Shown piece after piece: positions 27,516 to 32,481 of a DNA stretch of 64,000 nucleotides. The translations under genes and the position numbers were made by a program. The notes below the pieces were generated by a model. That model searched no databases and was not told the DNA's origin. It was given only the letters and a program-made list of their open reading frames with translations. Numbering within the stretch: position 1 is the stretch's first letter; each line of letters begins with the position of its first letter. The stretch is from a virus, in IMG/VR virus record IMGVR_UViG_3300008108_000011, positions 64,001-128,000 of that record; one strand, 5' to 3'.

Positions 27516-27726
27516 ACAGCAATACAATGAATTAATCGATTGGGCGGGGGATCGTATAGATCTCCTGCTCTCTCGTAGTAAAGCATGTAAAACATCACAA
27601 CGTAAAACAACACATAGACTGAACGCACAAGCATTAGAAGAAGAGTTCTTTGATTGGTTCGCTGCTAGACATTCAGACTCTACTCAAAATGTTCTCTTCA
27701 TACCCTATCATGGAAAACTATCCTAG
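27505..27726 (+). CDS. Hypothetical protein
   Basis: Packed ORF chain. Confidence 0.55.
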   Translation: MSNEQQYNELIDWAGDRIDLLLSRSKACKTSQRKTTHRLNAQALEEEFFDWFAARHSDSTQNVLFIPYHGKLS

Positions 27727-28345
27727 GTGCTCTACTGTAGGTGTCATTCAAACTCACCTACCACATACAATCATTGATACAATTAGAACTGAATGCCACG
27801 CCTACGATAATCAAATCAAACAAGCAAACACATTCAATAATAATACTAATTACCGTAAGACATTCATCAAAGCAATATCATCCTATGAATGGTTCGCTGG
27901 TATGCTCTGGCATTATATCTCACGAGCTAATAGAGAGAACTTTCTATTTGATATCACCTGCCTAGAGAATGAAGGATTAAATCATCTCATCTATCCTCCT
28001 GGGCATTACTATCATTGGCATCAAGATCAAGCATTGACATCATGCCTTCGCCCAACAATACTACCATCAGTCTATAACTCTACAATACAAGAGTCTTTGA
28101 CTGTAGAACACCAATGGATAAGAAAAATTTCTTTCTCATTACAACTAACAGATAGTAATGACTATACAGGGGGCGATCTACAATTCCATAATAATAATTA
28201 CACTAAGGAAGGAGTAATCACTGCACCTAGAGAGAAAGGATCATTGATTATATTTGATAGTAGACTATCACATAGGGTAACAAGAGTAAGAGAAGGAACA
28301 AGAGAAGCATTGGTAGGATGGGTATTAGGACCACGATGGAAATAG
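27710..28345 (+). CDS. 2OG-Fe(II) oxygenase, PKHD-type
   Basis: YYHWHQD...RKISFSLQLT..DYTGGDLQF...IIFDSRLSHRVTRVREGTREALVGWVLGPRWK; likely start 27710. Confidence 0.88.
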   Translation: MENYPRCSTVGVIQTHLPHTIIDTIRTECHAYDNQIKQANTFNNNTNYRKTFIKAISSYEWFAGMLWHYISRANRENFLFDITCLENEGLNHLIYPPGHYYHWHQDQALTSCLRPTILPSVYNSTIQESLTVEHQWIRKISFSLQLTDSNDYTGGDLQFHNNNYTKEGVITAPREKGSLIIFDSRLSHRVTRVREGTREALVGWVLGPRWK

Positions 28346-28386
28346 TTTTCCACAGGGTTGTGGAAAAAGTATAGAGTTTTTCCACA
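28346..28386. promoter_or_regulatory. DnaA-box cluster 1 (3 boxes)
   Basis: TTTTCCACA at 28346(+), 28359(-), 28378(+). Confidence 0.7.
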
Positions 28387-28542
28387 GATTTAAATGTGTT
28401 AAAAAATAGTATTGGGTTTTCTATGTGCTTCGTAGAATGTGTCTACAAATAGTCTGATGATACTGTGAAAGGTCTCAGAATCTTCAGAGTTGTTGTAGTC
28501 TTAGCACGCGAGCTAACGAGTTGTCAAGCGTTTGTCACAAAA

Positions 28543-28686
28543 CTCAAAAATCTCAAAAAACTCAAAAATCTCAAAAACGACAAAACTGAGATTTCTGAGA
28601 ATTCTGTATTTCCAAGGTTTTTTGAGTTTTTTCGAATTTTAAAAAACTTAATTTTTTAGTTTTTTGAGATTTTTGAGACTTTTGAG
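28543..28686. repeat. Inverted array of 9-bp-periodic CTCAAAAA units
   Basis: CTCAAAAA at 28543/28552/28561/28570; TTTTGAG units at about 28620-28686; perfect 20-bp IR 28543..28562 / 28658..28677. Confidence 0.9.
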
Positions 28687-28722
28687 AATTTTAAAGTCTT
28701 ATAATTATAACTTATCATTATA

Positions 28723-28776
28723 ATAAGGGTTACTAATCAATAAAGGGTTGACAAACCATCGAAAATACAGTATTAT
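28723..28776 (+). promoter_or_regulatory. Class A early promoter
   Basis: ATAAG-N5-CTAAT-N10-TTGACA-N17-TATTAT. Confidence 0.8.
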
Positions 28777-28803
28777 TACTAAGTAATCAATCAAAGACAT
28801 CGA

Positions 28804-29046
28804 ATGACTGTCAAAAACTACACTGATCTTCCTAGTTCTGCTATCAAAAACATCACTATTGATACTGTAAAGAACACTGTATCAGTAGAGTATACTACTG
28901 GTAACAAACAGTATACTTACAGCACCGAAGATGCTGAAGGTTTTGATCAGCAACTGCTGTCAGAATTCGACTCTGATGATATCTCAGTGGGTCGATTCAT
29001 GAATCAGAGCGTCACAAATGGCACTCTGAATCTGCTTGTTGACTGA
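28804..29046 (+). CDS. KTSC-like domain protein
   Basis: SSAIKNI..D....V.VEY..G..Y.Y...S.GRFMN. Confidence 0.5.
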   Translation: MTVKNYTDLPSSAIKNITIDTVKNTVSVEYTTGNKQYTYSTEDAEGFDQQLLSEFDSDDISVGRFMNQSVTNGTLNLLVD

Positions 29047-29151
29047 CCCTACCACAGATAAATACGTTTGTCAAGGGGTAAAGACACCAATTTGGTTGTC
29101 AATATCCCTTCCAGACGATTCTAGACACCTCTCAGAGAACATTTCAAACCG

Positions 29152-29316
29152 ATGGCTAAATCCAAAGCAGGAAACTACAAGGATAATTTCTATAACGAAT
29201 TCGATGAATTCGAAGAGCATGAAGTAGAACAAAAGTATGGTGTGAAAGTGAAGAATATTGGTCGCACTCCAAAGAAACAGAAAAAGCTTAAATTTGATGG
29301 TGATTTTGAATGGTAA
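29152..29316 (+). CDS. Small charged hypothetical protein (54 aa)
   Basis: MAKSKAGNYKDNFYNEFDEFEEHEVEQKYGVKVKNIGRTPKKQKKLKFDGDFEW; ATAAATA late-promoter-like site at about 29058. Confidence 0.55.
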   Translation: MAKSKAGNYKDNFYNEFDEFEEHEVEQKYGVKVKNIGRTPKKQKKLKFDGDFEW

Positions 29317-29329
29317 TCTAATAAAATAG

Positions 29330-29393
29330 TTTTCCACAGATATACTAAAACCTGTGGAAAACTTTCAATAGTTTTCCACAACCCTGTGGAAAA
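29330..29393. promoter_or_regulatory. DnaA-box cluster 2 (4 boxes)
   Basis: TTTTCCACA at 29330(+), 29353(-), 29372(+), 29385(-). Confidence 0.7.
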
Positions 29394-29398
29394 CTCTC

Positions 29399-29475
29399 AT
29401 AAGCCCCCCTAATCAGACCCATAAGCAAAGGTGATGGTTAGGGGGGTTGACTTTTGCCCCGATCTGACCCATACT
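29399..29475 (+). promoter_or_regulatory. Class A early promoter with two upstream boxes
   Basis: ATAAG-N5-CTAAT at 29399, ATAAG-N5-GTGAT at 29421, N11, TTGACT-N17-CATACT. Confidence 0.75.
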
Positions 29476-29499
29476 ACCTAAGTCAACAGCAAACGACCC

Positions 29500-29811
29500 A
29501 TGCGCCTCATCGAACGCCAAATGAACGCTGCTATCACCAACAGCAAAGATTGGCAGAAAGACAATACCATGGTGAGCAACGCTGATGGTGTTTCTTTCGT
29601 GTTTCTTCATGGTAACTGTATCGCCCAGATTGGTGATACGTTTGTGCGACTGTTTGATGGTGGTTGGCAAACTAACACCACCAAATCTCGCCTGAATGCT
29701 ATCCTGACTGCACACGGCAACGGTGAGCGTGTTTTCCAGAAGAATTTCAATTGGTTTGTTAGCACTGCTGCAGGCGATGTTGAGTTCGAATCTGGTATGC
29801 TTCTCGCCTGA
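29500..29811 (+). CDS. Hypothetical early protein
   Basis: MRLIERQMNAAI...LHGNCIA...DGGWQTNTTKSRLNAIL. Confidence 0.7.
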   Translation: MRLIERQMNAAITNSKDWQKDNTMVSNADGVSFVFLHGNCIAQIGDTFVRLFDGGWQTNTTKSRLNAILTAHGNGERVFQKNFNWFVSTAAGDVEFESGMLLA

Positions 29812-29851
29812 ACTTTACACTACATACTAACTGAAACCCATGGAGGATTAC

Positions 29852-29980
29852 ATGACCATTTCTGAAATGTATCAAGAGATTGTTGATCAAGAGGTGGCAG
29901 ACATTTTCCTTGATAGTGATAGTTTGATCGTTGACGATTATGCTCTCGAAGATGTAATCGAAGAGGTCTACGATTTGTAA
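29852..29980 (+). CDS. Small acidic protein (42 aa)
   Basis: GGAGG SD; MTISEMYQEIVDQEVADIFLDSDSLIVDDYALEDVIEEVYDL. Confidence 0.55.
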   Translation: MTISEMYQEIVDQEVADIFLDSDSLIVDDYALEDVIEEVYDL

Positions 29981-30083
29981 TACAAACTGATCAGCCGCCC
30001 GACCAGTTGGGGAACTGTCACACCACTGGTCGCCGCGGCCACCCCCTGCCCTTATACTATAGAAGTCAAACGCACCGAGACCT

Positions 30084-30212
30084 ATGTGGGATGAGATCCA
30101 AGACATGCCTGGTGAGATCTTCGATATCGAAGATTGGGGGCACCCCCTAGCAGAGTGCTGGCACGATATGGAGCTGAATGTGCCAGATGAAGAGGTGGCA
30201 CAGGAGGGGTGA
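30084..30212 (+). CDS. Small acidic protein (42 aa)
   Basis: MWDEIQDMPGEIFDIEELGHPLAECWHDMELNVPDEEVAQEG after a class B promoter. Confidence 0.55.
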   Translation: MWDEIQDMPGEIFDIEDWGHPLAECWHDMELNVPDEEVAQEG

Positions 30213-30264
30213 CCCTCCCCCCTCTCCTGCCTCTATACTGATCAAGTCAACCACACACGAGACC

Positions 30265-30432
30265 ATGACCCGCTTCGAAGTTTACGTGCCCTCTGCCCCT
30301 TACGAGTCCGAGAGCACCTGGGATCTCGATCGTGCCTGGGATCTGTGCCTCTCGCTGAGCGAGGAGTTCGGATACGCTCAGGTTCGCCAGGATGGTATCA
30401 TCCTGGGAGACTACACCAACGGGGGTGTGTGA
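30265..30432 (+). CDS. Small hypothetical protein
   Basis: MTRFEVYVPSAPYESESTWDLDRAWDLC...; start after the promoter. Confidence 0.65.
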   Translation: MTRFEVYVPSAPYESESTWDLDRAWDLCLSLSEEFGYAQVRQDGIILGDYTNGGV

Positions 30433-30512
30433 CACTCTAGAAACTGGCACAAGGGGTCACCACAGACCCCACCCTGACCCTCTATACTGATCAAGTCAAC
30501 CAAACAAAGCAA

Positions 30513-30941
30513 ATGACCGTGACTCTGACCTCCAACTATCGTGACATGCTCGCTGCTGCCACTGTTGAGAAGATCGATGAATTGCTCGATGAGAACTATG
30601 CTCTCGATGACATGCTCGAATTCATCGATGAGCGTAATGAGAACGATTTTGTAGCATACTATGAAGAGTATTGCCGTTGTGGTGAAGCAATCGGTTACGA
30701 TGCTGTAGATGCTCTCATCGATGAGATGGGGTGCGTTTCTGACATCGAAGGGTGTGATGATCGCTTCCGTGGTTGGTATGAATCGACCGCTGATTTCGCT
30801 GAAGAGTTTTATACTGATACCTACGATGTTCCCTCTGCATTGGTGATCGATTGGGAGGCAACTTACGATAGCACCCTCCGCTACGATTACACTGCCTGTG
30901 AGAAAGGTTATCGTCAGGTGGCGATCTTCTCTGATTACTGA
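30513..30941 (+). CDS. ArdA-like acidic anti-restriction (DNA mimic) protein
   Basis: Very D/E rich; FRGWYESTADFAEEF...VPSALVIDWEATY..LRYDY resembles the ArdA C-terminal domain. Confidence 0.6.
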   Translation: MTVTLTSNYRDMLAAATVEKIDELLDENYALDDMLEFIDERNENDFVAYYEEYCRCGEAIGYDAVDALIDEMGCVSDIEGCDDRFRGWYESTADFAEEFYTDTYDVPSALVIDWEATYDSTLRYDYTACEKGYRQVAIFSDY

Positions 30942-31023
30942 GTGACAGTCTGAGAGGTGGCACACGCTGCCTCTCAGCACCCCATCCTAGCCCCTATACT
31001 GATCTCAGTTCAAACGACACACG

Positions 31024-31224
31024 ATGTTCAAGGCATTCACCCTCGGATCTACCGCCATCAGCAAGATGACCGCCGATCCTATCACGGGCACCGTTCGCGT
31101 TCGCTTTCGTGGGGGCACTAAGTTCTACCGCTTCGAGAACGTCTCCCGTCGCGCCATCGTGGCGATGCTGCTGCGCCCTCCCGTGAGCATGGGCCAGTGG
31201 GTAAACCGTCACTGCCTCGCCTGA
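31024..31224 (+). CDS. KTSC-like domain protein
   Basis: STAIS...D...GTVRVRFRGG..Y.F.NV....I..LL...SMGQWVN. Confidence 0.55.
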   Translation: MFKAFTLGSTAISKMTADPITGTVRVRFRGGTKFYRFENVSRRAIVAMLLRPPVSMGQWVNRHCLA

Positions 31225-31269
31225 TCAGGTCGCCTGACCCTGTAGACTAATCACATCAGCAAACAACCC

Positions 31270-31431
31270 ATGAGAATCGAAGTTCGTTACCAGACTCCCT
31301 ACAATGCTTGTGAGTGGCGCTCGCAGTGGTTTAAGGATCTGGCAGAGGCAGAGCGTATGGTAGAATTCTATCGCTCCTGTGGGTCACCCTCTCACATCGC
31401 CCCTTCCTCCCTCGCTCAGTTCGATCGCTGA
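31270..31431 (+). CDS. Small hypothetical protein (53 aa)
   Basis: MRIEVRYQTPYNACEWRSQWFKDLAEAERMVEFYRSCGSP... Confidence 0.6.
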   Translation: MRIEVRYQTPYNACEWRSQWFKDLAEAERMVEFYRSCGSPSHIAPSSLAQFDR

Positions 31432-31438
31432 TTCTACC

Positions 31439-31579
31439 ATGCCGAACCTCATCCGCCTTTCCCTGGTCGCCGCCATCTGCCTGATGTTCGCCAACACCCT
31501 AGGATCGGTGTTCGCCCTAGCCCAGACCCTAGACCGTGTGACAGCCGAGAAGGTGGCACAGATCGCCGCCATCGACTGA
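31439..31579 (+). CDS. Small membrane/secreted peptide
   Basis: MPNLIRLSLVAAICLMFANTLG... Confidence 0.5.
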   Translation: MPNLIRLSLVAAICLMFANTLGSVFALAQTLDRVTAEKVAQIAAID

Positions 31580-31618
31580 CCCCGACCCTGTAGACTGATC
31601 TCAGTTCAAACAAAGCAA

Positions 31619-31792
31619 ATGACCAACCCCAAGATCGACCTCGCCGCCATCATGGCAGACTACACCACCCGCTACAATGAGATGCAGGCACGGTCTGCCG
31701 CCAACCGCCAGGCATTCGCTGAGGGTCGCCCCTTCCCCTTCCCCGCCCCCGAGTGCCAGTCTGACACCTGGAACATCAGCGACCGCCACTGA
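31619..31792 (+). CDS. Small hypothetical protein (57 aa)
   Basis: MTNPKIDLAAIMADYTTRYNEMQARSAANRQAFAEGRPFPFPAPECQSDTWNISDRH. Confidence 0.6.
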   Translation: MTNPKIDLAAIMADYTTRYNEMQARSAANRQAFAEGRPFPFPAPECQSDTWNISDRH

Positions 31793-31838
31793 GCGGCGCT
31801 GCCTGTAGAATTCTCTCAGTTCAACCGACAGACGACCG

Positions 31839-32033
31839 ATGATCCTCAGCATGGCATCCGACCTTCAGACCCGCCGCATCGTGTGGGCAGGTCGCAAGAC
31901 AGAGACCGCACAGCAGACCATGGGGCAAGATCTGCCCCTGACCGTAGAGAGTGAGTGGATCGCGGGCGCTTACTCTGACCGCTGGCATGATGAGGCGATC
32001 GCCGCCCTGCCCCTGTTCACCCACGCCGACTGA
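31839..32033 (+). CDS. Small hypothetical protein
   Basis: First ORF after a class B promoter. Confidence 0.6.
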   Translation: MILSMASDLQTRRIVWAGRKTETAQQTMGQDLPLTVESEWIAGAYSDRWHDEAIAALPLFTHAD

Positions 32034-32036
32034 CCC

Positions 32037-32231
32037 ATGAAAAAAATCGAGCGCGAGCGCCTGATGATCATGACCCGTGAGGGATGGGCAGAGAAGCGAC
32101 GCACGGGAGGGCACATCGTATGGCAGCACCCCCGCTATGGCACAACCACCACCAGCGCCACGCCCAGCGACATTAACTCACTGCGACAGATCGAGCGCCA
32201 GCTGCGACGCATCGCCGCCGCTGCTGCCTGA
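32037..32231 (+). CDS. HicA-like (dsRBD-fold) mRNA interferase homolog
   Basis: L...EGW..KRRTGGHIVWQHP..G..TT..TPSD...LRQIERQL. Confidence 0.65.
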   Translation: MKKIERERLMIMTREGWAEKRRTGGHIVWQHPRYGTTTTSATPSDINSLRQIERQLRRIAAAAA

Positions 32232-32247
32232 CCCGCCATCCTAGCAC

Positions 32248-32275
32248 ACTGCCCCCTAGGGGGCAGTTATTTTAT
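32248..32275 (+). terminator. Intrinsic terminator closing the GC-rich island
   Basis: Perfect 20-bp palindrome ACTGCCCCCTAGGGGGCAGT followed by TATTTTT. Confidence 0.75.
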
Positions 32276-32481
32276 AACGATACCGTTATGGCGGCGCGGC
32301 CGAGCGAAAAGTCATAGATACTATTAACCTACAAAACTTTGAAAACGCTCGATCGATTACACGTTCATAAAAAAAATTTTTCCCTAACAAAATGACTCAA
32401 AAAACCTCAATGAGCACAAAGACCACAACAGCAGAGGAATTCGGATATATTTGGATGACTTTGAAGGAACTCGTAAGGATC

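Follow-up and report, generated by a model that had tools for sequence, protein, structure and literature searches.

Background

T4-like cyanophages are among the most abundant viruses of the ocean, and to our knowledge no replication origin has been mapped in any of them. In this study, a locus with seven perfect copies of the host DnaA box, TTTTCCACA, was analysed in a lytic T4-like phage represented by a complete record of 192,732 bp (IMG/VR record IMGVR_UViG_3300008108_000011). The window, to which all positions refer, is the stretch of 64,000 nucleotides at bases 64001-128000 of this record. The boxes form two clusters, A and B, between which an AT-rich repeat block and two small genes, orf80 and orf54, are situated. 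The flanking genes resemble those of Synechococcus T4-like cyanophages, e.g. S-PM2, S-RIM32, and S-RIM44.

Bacterial chromosomes carry non-origin clusters of DnaA boxes, such as datA of Escherichia coli and the clusters of Bacillus subtilis. The phage locus resembles them in having high-affinity boxes outside oriC, which could reduce free DnaA; it differs in being virus-borne, and its fixed synteny and adjoining AT-rich block are not features of a sink.

Host DnaA boxes, iterons, and an unwinding element make up the standard layout of iteron replicons, including the P1 plasmid, F, RK2, and pSC101 (PMC4980987). The phage locus likewise has host DnaA boxes, short repeats, and an easily melted AT-rich block near a promoter and small genes. 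Unlike these replicons, it has no Rep-type initiator gene, the neighbour being an 80-aa protein of the KTSC fold; its repeats are 9 bp long and lie in two inverted arrays, and it is carried by a lytic T4-like phage that has a replisome of its own. In the ori region of phage lambda, with pO/oop and pR, DnaA sites lie beside the origin-flanking promoters, a short leftward promoter is followed by boxes, and transcription activates replication (PMC3985674). The arrangement here may be similar, with putative DnaA sites and a candidate leftward promoter. Lambda has two weak boxes, its own initiator O, and iterons inside the O gene, whereas this phage has seven perfect boxes and no O/P homologues.

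The origins of T4 work without DnaA (PMC3016281). T4 oriF and oriG consist of a promoter plus a downstream unwinding element and use an R-loop primer, and oriE has iterons and an early promoter (PMC3016281). This phage belongs to the same type of virus, and its locus likewise combines a promoter with an adjacent AT-rich element; as in oriE, there are repeats and a presumed dependence on early-type promoters. In contrast, the T4 origins have no DnaA boxes, oriF and oriG use MotA-dependent middle promoters, and the genome studied here has no recognisable gp59. Cyanobacterial oriC lies upstream of dnaN (PMC4674748), and a DnaA-box plus DnaA-trio unwinding system is described (PMC8287927). The phage locus shares with it the same 9-mer, the flank preferences, and the helical tandem spacing. 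Unlike oriC, the locus has no nearby dnaN or dnaA, no significant trio run, and no GC-rich spacer such as that of Synechococcus elongatus-like oriC. Every box of the phage is perfect, but most of those at picocyanobacterial oriC are degenerate, and the head-to-head box pair with a 4-nt spacer (N4 pair) seen at the locus is nearly absent from sampled cyanobacterial genomes (see below). Our search of the literature on cyanophages with DnaA or DnaA boxes found no report of such box arrays. A lytic T4-like phage is an unexpected carrier of host DnaA boxes of the kind found in extrachromosomal replication or control regions.

Host DnaA boxes at the locus

The 9-mer TTTTCCACA is the cyanobacterial DnaA box, with the general form TTWTNCACA; DnaA binding was tested in vitro in Cyanothece, for which the gel-shift oligonucleotides are listed, and assays were reported for Anabaena (PMC4674748). 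The same identity had been assigned to the motif in an earlier sequence-only reading of the window. Exact copies were found at 28346+, 28359-, and 28378+ (cluster A) and at 29330+, 29353-, 29372+, and 29385- (cluster B), each at the coordinate and on the strand which that reading had given, and both clusters are in non-coding DNA. The extended form AATAGTTTTCCACA is present three times (28341, 29325, and 29367), also as noticed before. The window contains nine copies of TTTTCCACA, two of them outside the locus (10394- and 12687+), the first of which had been overlooked. In 100 dinucleotide-preserving shuffles of the window, the 9-mer appeared 1.09 times on average and at most 5 times. The genome-wide count that the sequence-only reading had proposed gave 10 copies, of which 7 fall within 1,050 bp (binomial P ~1.7e-14); the 3 beyond the locus equal the number expected by chance.

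An exact 23-nt inverted repeat, 28345-28367 / 29372-29394, was reported in the same reading and was exact on re-examination, lengthening to 24 nt or, if a complementarity of 81% is accepted, to 48 nt; cluster A is thus a mirror image of the right three boxes of cluster B. The two head-to-head box pairs are palindromic and have GGGT and ACCC as spacers, and the repeat is a by-product of this; its treatment as a feature in its own right in the sequence-only reading is not supported. Box orientations and spacers vary between relatives. Exact inverted repeats of 23-24 bp flanking a 1-kb segment might also be the ends of a mobile or invertible cassette, and in one relative (L252) the spacer of the last pair is flipped from ACCC to GGGT. 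However, no recombinase or transposase gene was found in or beside the segment, and gene order and orientation are identical in every aligned relative, none of which has the segment inverted. Furthermore, the repeat is no more than a pair of palindromic box pairs, and in relatives such as S-PM2, L011, L104, and L252 it is neither exact nor present. A cassette is essentially excluded.

The sequences around the boxes were compared with those at host origins. The flanks of 350 distinct phage boxes showed A at -2, G or T at -1, and G or A at +9, and the host boxes upstream of dnaN agree. Tandem boxes are spaced at 11-12, 21-22, 31-32, and 42 nt in phages and at 11-12, 22-23, 29-32, and 43-44 nt in host oriC, in both cases multiples of about 10.5 nt (helical phasing). 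The head-to-head pair was found in at least 119 viral contigs, at least 75 of which are cyanomyovirus-like and share two or more proteins with this phage, whereas the one-base control pair TTTTCTACA-N4-TGTAGAAAA was 30-fold rarer (4 viral contigs).

Upstream of dnaN, six TTTTCCACA and two TTATCCACA boxes were found in an S. elongatus-like genome, mostly imperfect TTWTCCACN boxes in the sampled high-GC picocyanobacteria, and five to eight copies of TTTTCTACA in the low-GC Prochlorococcus-like genomes sampled (loci L329-L331, L333, L360, L361, L364, L365, and L367-L369). The last form departs from TTWTNCACA at position 6, where C is usually invariant; its presence at oriC would imply an altered or relaxed DnaA specificity in the Prochlorococcus-like lineage. 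That the phage locus is a copy of a host oriC was rejected, as the head-to-head N4 pair occurs in only 1 of 401 sampled cyanobacterial genomes. In this sole exception, a metagenome-assembled genome of Candidatus Cyanaurora vandensis, the cluster is beside neither dnaN nor dnaA, and dnaN is on another contig. The Cyanaurora cluster (L334:2573-2707, on a 10-kb contig) has seven TTTTCCACA boxes, including an identical 22-mer, TTTTCCACAACCCTGTGGAAAA, between glyoxalase and GCS2-family genes, and may be the oriC of this organism or a separate DnaA-box cluster. As an oriC signature in other bacteria, the head-to-head N4 pair gave mixed results, being located 280 nt upstream of dnaA in Lujinxingia vulgaris (L141) and between proS and glmS in Streptococcus mitis and S. 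pneumoniae (L137, L149). At 108 bacterial loci, extra TTWTNCACA boxes were about sevenfold enriched within 400 nt of the pair.

It is also conceivable that the motif is not a DnaA site here. It might instead be an operator to which a phage-encoded protein or another DNA-binding protein of the host binds, or the palindromic pairs might function at the RNA level, as hairpins that terminate transcripts or stabilise their 3' ends. Cluster B RNA folds into two strong hairpins (-30 kcal/mol, z = -8), which were flagged on the minus strand in a terminator scan; its + - + - layout is kept in all close relatives, and the neighbours orf80 and orf54 are uncharacterised. However, the scan for intrinsic terminators gave none on the plus strand, where no T-run follows either hairpin, and two weak candidates with 4-5 GC pairs on the minus strand. 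About one-third of adjacent box pairs are tandem and incapable of forming hairpins, the stems never co-vary, and the exact 9-mer is preserved across the 350 distinct contexts, with flanks and phasing that agree with host oriC boxes. As for a protein, the KTSC fold of orf80 has no known DNA binding, paralogues of orf80 exist without boxes, and no DnaA-like helix-turn-helix domain was found in the phage. A motif unrelated to DnaA is considered unlikely. Judged from sequence comparison, host DnaA probably docks at the TTTTCCACA arrays; this explanation is favoured because it alone accounts jointly for the exact 9-mer, the flanks and phasing, the orientation-independent use, and the association with host genus described next.

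Conservation among relatives and link to host genus

The syntenic locus was inspected in related cyanophages, as the sequence-only reading had suggested, and the boxes were found to be conserved there. S-PM2 and S-RIM32 have three boxes at the same site, followed by the conserved block, inverted repeats, and homologues of orf80 and orf54; all five genome copies of the box in S-RIM32, and all seven in another relative, are in the locus. In IMG/VR relatives with orf80 53-91% identical, the position of cluster A holds two or three boxes of variable orientation, the remaining boxes being perfect. Even where the orf80 homologue is more distant (26-28% identity), three boxes lie 240-310 nt upstream of it. 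The same four perfect boxes of cluster B (+ - + -) were found at the same position in 13 relative loci. In a seven-genome alignment of this cluster, invariant columns amounted to 27/36 in boxes versus 11/28 in spacers. Boxes thus remain perfect while their number, orientation, and spacers vary among relatives.

One syntenic box locus per genome was detected in S-PM2, S-RIM32, S-RIM44, Syn1, Syn9, S-SM1, Syn19, Syn33, S-ShM2, S-SM2, S-SSM5, Syn30, S-CREM1, S-WAM1, ACG-2014g, S-RIM2, and P-SSM7, which span 14 genera plus unassigned isolates. Among 26 named isolates, clusters were present in 16 of the 20 with a Synechococcus host and 1 of the 6 with a Prochlorococcus host (Fisher P = 0.0097), although the compared genomes are related, so that the counts are not independent and the statistics overstate independence. 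BLAST of cluster B matched 87 phage records, all of them Synechococcus phages, and gave no match among about 20 gp59-positive 'Prochlorococcus phage' records in the collection. Host tracking by box variant, in which TTTTCTACA arrays would be expected in Prochlorococcus phages, was rejected: the 6 isolates had no such clusters, and the variant pair was limited to the 4 viral contigs mentioned above. The match to the host is therefore one of presence versus absence, not of substitution.

Variable number and orientation of the boxes, and their absence from some phages, would suit a site-counting function, that is, a datA-like decoy whose arrays titrate host DnaA as phage genomes multiply and thereby halt new rounds of host chromosome replication. 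All seven sites have the perfect consensus, in contrast to the mostly imperfect boxes at the sampled high-GC picocyanobacterial oriC, and the locus lies amid accessory early genes. However, one genome early in infection equals seven sites, so that titration is possible only once replication is under way. A decoy has no need for a fixed syntenic position, helical phasing, or a neighbouring AT-rich block, and no arrays of the Prochlorococcus-type box were found in Prochlorococcus phages. A decoy function is quite improbable.

The AT-rich repeat block and a possible origin

The repeat block between the promoters contains four or five 9-bp CTCAAAAA-type repeats opposite three or four inverted TTTTGAG copies. 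These facing arrays form a long imperfect palindrome, and the TTATAATTATAA palindrome comes next. As single-stranded DNA, the block folds with -32.5 kcal/mol (z = -4.1 versus shuffled sequence). It has the third least stable 100-nt window of the 192-kb genome, and when windows of 60-100 nt are ranked by stability it falls within the lowest three to six. Short units repeated with a 9-bp period are thus found beside an AT-rich segment of low stability, as in iteron-type regions, and the block is conserved in relatives, including S-PM2 and S-RIM32.

Coupling of the boxes to this block was examined with the TTAGCACGC-N8-12-TTGTCAAG element, which is present in a single copy here. It was found in 60 IMG/VR contigs and in several genera, in most cases with no DnaA boxes, and its role may be that of a leftward promoter of non-canonical type or of an operator for some factor. 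Among 38 distinct IMG/VR loci with TTAGCACGC..TTGTCAAG, the 11 with boxes were exactly the 11 with an AT-rich iteron-like block, and the other 27 had neither. The view that boxes are an optional addition to a cassette of promoter and AT-rich block is only partly supported: in these loci, the TTAGCACGC element exists apart from boxes and the AT-rich block did not. Box clusters in general are near very AT-rich 100-nt blocks in 38% of cases versus 12% of random positions, a control that is weakened by intergenic DNA being AT-rich anyway. The block at 28491..28537 is near-invariant in the alignment of relatives, has a single copy in the genome, and is also present in S-PM2, P-RSM4 (L373:898-927), and P-SSM7 (L428:364-392; AGTCAAG replacing TTGTCAAG). 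It includes a candidate leftward promoter (28527-28498) directed at the conserved AT-rich block 28387-28415. The promoter of orf80-orf54 is read in the other direction, and its -35, -10, and leader are invariant among relatives.

We tentatively favour the explanation that the TTTTCCACA arrays, together with the AT-rich inverted-repeat block between back-to-back promoters, form a phage origin for the first, origin-dependent rounds of replication. The preference is based on the synteny and single copy of the locus, its coupling to a repeat block of low stability between promoters, and its resemblance to an iteron replicon, in a group of phages whose origins are unmapped. From the box identity, clustering, conservation, match to the host type, and low duplex stability observed, we infer that DnaA probably binds, that the DNA may open, and that the locus may have a role in replication. 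The early promoters would be fired by host RNA polymerase, and DnaA-ATP oligomers would assemble on the helically phased boxes at both sides. Negative supercoiling from divergent transcription, aided by DnaA, would open or extrude the repeat block, on which the phage DnaB-family (gp41-like) helicase and primase would load. Such a helicase is encoded at G000:C1:176904-177551, outside the window; DnaA domain IV or another DnaA-type DNA-binding domain is not encoded by the phage genome.

Several observations weigh against an origin. A run of four NAN triplets begins 14 nt past box 28378, but 16% of random genome positions have such a run, and the DnaA-trio test at the locus was not significant. 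The boxes are about 150 nt away from the repeat block and do not abut it. The leftward promoter is a non-canonical candidate, which the consensus promoter scan did not call because its -10 lacks the final T. The boxes of P-SSM7 lie beside promoters and are not accompanied by an AT-rich block, and at the homologous locus of P-RSM4 both boxes and repeat block are missing; this layout looks regulatory. Clusters are missing in 4 of 20 Synechococcus and 5 of 6 Prochlorococcus phages, so that DnaA is not a general requirement of the family, and the relatedness of the compared genomes, noted above, lessens the weight of the host association. GC skew, another check suggested in the sequence-only reading, proved uninformative, as it follows transcription and shows no inflection at the locus; GC and AT skew both track the near-uniform gene direction only. 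We also know of no interface between DnaA and a T4-type replisome. Finally, the gp59 helicase loader was not recognisable in the genome by tblastn with four cyanophage gp59 N-termini or with PF08993 and PF08994.

Some of these observations would fit DnaA acting here as a transcription factor, which activates, represses, or blocks the adjacent early promoters (the leftward candidate, that of orf80, and that of the Gp96-family gene) with no replication start, so that early expression would be tied to the DnaA-ATP state of the host, i.e. its cell cycle or light status. The clusters are always in promoter-rich intergenic DNA of the early region, and 54 nt separate the end of cluster B from the -35 that follows. 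P-SSM7 has two tandem boxes directly before a start codon and, at a distance of about 65 nt from the TTAGCACGC element, a convergent pair; no AT-rich block is near. Turnover of box number and orientation is typical of transcription-factor sites. There is also a precedent in lambda, in which footprints show DnaA protecting boxes downstream of pO, and pR is stimulated by DnaA (PMC3985674). However, cluster A is about 400 nt upstream of the orf80 promoter, beyond the classical operator range, seven perfect sites exceed regulatory need, and the joint occurrence of boxes and AT-rich repeat block (11/11 loci versus 0/27) is not required by a purely transcriptional role. This role is rather unlikely, though a regulator of early promoters is about as likely as a sink. 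The sequence-only reading had inferred either an origin or a sink for DnaA; the origin-like character of the segment stands and is extended by the AT-rich iteron-like block between promoters, and computation did not separate origin from sink.

With respect to the origin, the missing gp59 was considered further. It was likewise undetected in S-PM2, S-RIM32, S-RIM44, Syn1, S-WAM1, P-SSM7, S-RSM4, and S-SSM7. Arrays of at least three boxes were found in 8 of 10 gp59-less versus 5 of 18 gp59-bearing genomes (P = 0.016, with no correction for phylogeny), and a link between gp59 absence and large box arrays is suggestive only. As the reason for the boxes, gp59 absence was set aside, the association being weak and confounded by phylogeny, with arrays also carried by five gp59-bearing isolates. 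It is a possibility that box arrays partly stand in for the missing loader. The idea that gp59 is the loader at a cruciform was dropped because the genome has no recognisable gp59.

Organization of the locus and neighbouring genes

The features of the locus are listed from left to right in Table 1.

Table 1. Features of the DnaA-box locus and its flanks, in window coordinates
Feature	Position	Strand	Basis or details
Upstream gene, 2OG-Fe(II) oxygenase	27650..28345	+	ORF; Pfam PF13640, E 2.2e-12
Box cluster A, three perfect TTTTCCACA (+ - +)	28346..28386		Start-to-start spacing 13 and 19 nt
Conserved AT-rich block TAAATGTGT-AAAAAAATAG adjoining cluster A	28387..28415		Kept in six-genome alignment; recognisable in S-PM2 and S-RIM32
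Conserved block GTTGTTG..TCTTAGCACGCGA..TTGTCAAGC, candidate leftward promoter	28491..28537	-	TTGACA 28527-28522, 18-nt spacer, TAAGAC 28503-28498, TGC before TAAGAC
AT-rich repeat block, candidate unwinding/iteron element	28532..28745		Repeat families D1-D3, inverted repeats I1-I8
Sigma70-type promoter of orf80-orf54	28748..28776	+	TTGACA, 17 nt, TATTAT; 11/12 consensus matches
orf80, small KTSC-fold protein	28804..29046	+	phrog_4357
orf54, small highly charged protein, no family match	29152..29316	+	ORF; homologues co-positioned in S-PM2 (p064), S-RIM32, and IMG/VR relatives
Box cluster B, four perfect boxes (+ - + -)	29330..29393		Two convergent pairs, 14-nt and 4-nt spacers
GC-rich hairpin CCCCCCTAATCA ... 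TGGTTAGGGGGG	29404..29446	+	Inverted repeat I25, 12-nt arms, 92% complementary; conserved in relatives
Sigma70-type promoter of downstream gene	29447..29475	+	TTGACT, 17 nt, CATACT; conserved in relatives and S-PM2
Downstream gene orf103, Kyanoviridae Gp96 family	29500..29811	+	Pfam PF23790, E 1.1e-41; 158 cyanophage records match region

The stop codon TAG of the oxygenase gene, which also precedes the module in S-PM2 and S-RIM32, directly abuts the first box of cluster A, and cluster B comes after the stop codon of orf54 and before the promoter of the gene that follows. Pfam KTSC was detected in 5 of 15 orf80 homologues (best E 1.8e-4). The AlphaFold model of orf80 (pLDDT 85.5) gave the KTSC structures 4rgi and 7x8c as the best Foldseek matches (TM 0.62-0.67); no sequence match was found in PDB. 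The protein is also similar to a domain of HerA in SIR2/HerA antiphage complexes, and paralogues were found elsewhere, in cyanophage GC-rich cassettes without boxes. An initiator among the adjacent genes was rejected, orf80 having the KTSC fold and orf54 no family, and no Rep initiator gene thus lies beside the iteron-like repeats. Linkage to dnaN or dnaA was not observed, the neighbours being the oxygenase, the KTSC-fold protein, orf54, and the Gp96-family protein.

The spacer between orf80 and orf54 (29036-29151) contains a promoter-like site on the minus strand (TTGACA at 29074, 17 nt, TAGGGT) and a second TTGTCAAG, which suggests possible antisense transcription into orf80. To the right of cluster B, the GC content rises abruptly from about 0.34 to 0.53-0.59, and the region 29400-32300 is a GC-rich island in which every one of the very small ORFs has a separate promoter. 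The GC jump at 29400 places the box locus at a compositional boundary. Rfam and tRNA scans of the region gave no credible match.

Conclusions

A wider proposal, which we regard as doubtful, is that most marine Synechococcus T4-like phages begin their first replication round with host DnaA at one dedicated origin of boxes and AT-rich block. The DnaA-ATP state of the host, and through it light and the cell cycle, would then gate phage replication, and Prochlorococcus phages, whose hosts have a different box, would have given up the arrangement.

The conserved, single-copy, host-matched DnaA-box locus offers a precise place for experiments. If DnaA fires or tunes phage replication, it would be a molecular link between the light and cell-cycle state of the host and the daily rhythm of cyanophage infection, and a lytic T4-type phage would be seen to borrow the bacterial initiator, as is otherwise known of temperate phages and plasmids. 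The difference between phages of Synechococcus and those of Prochlorococcus, which parallels TTTTCCACA versus TTTTCTACA at host origins, would in addition be a new cis-acting correlate of host range.

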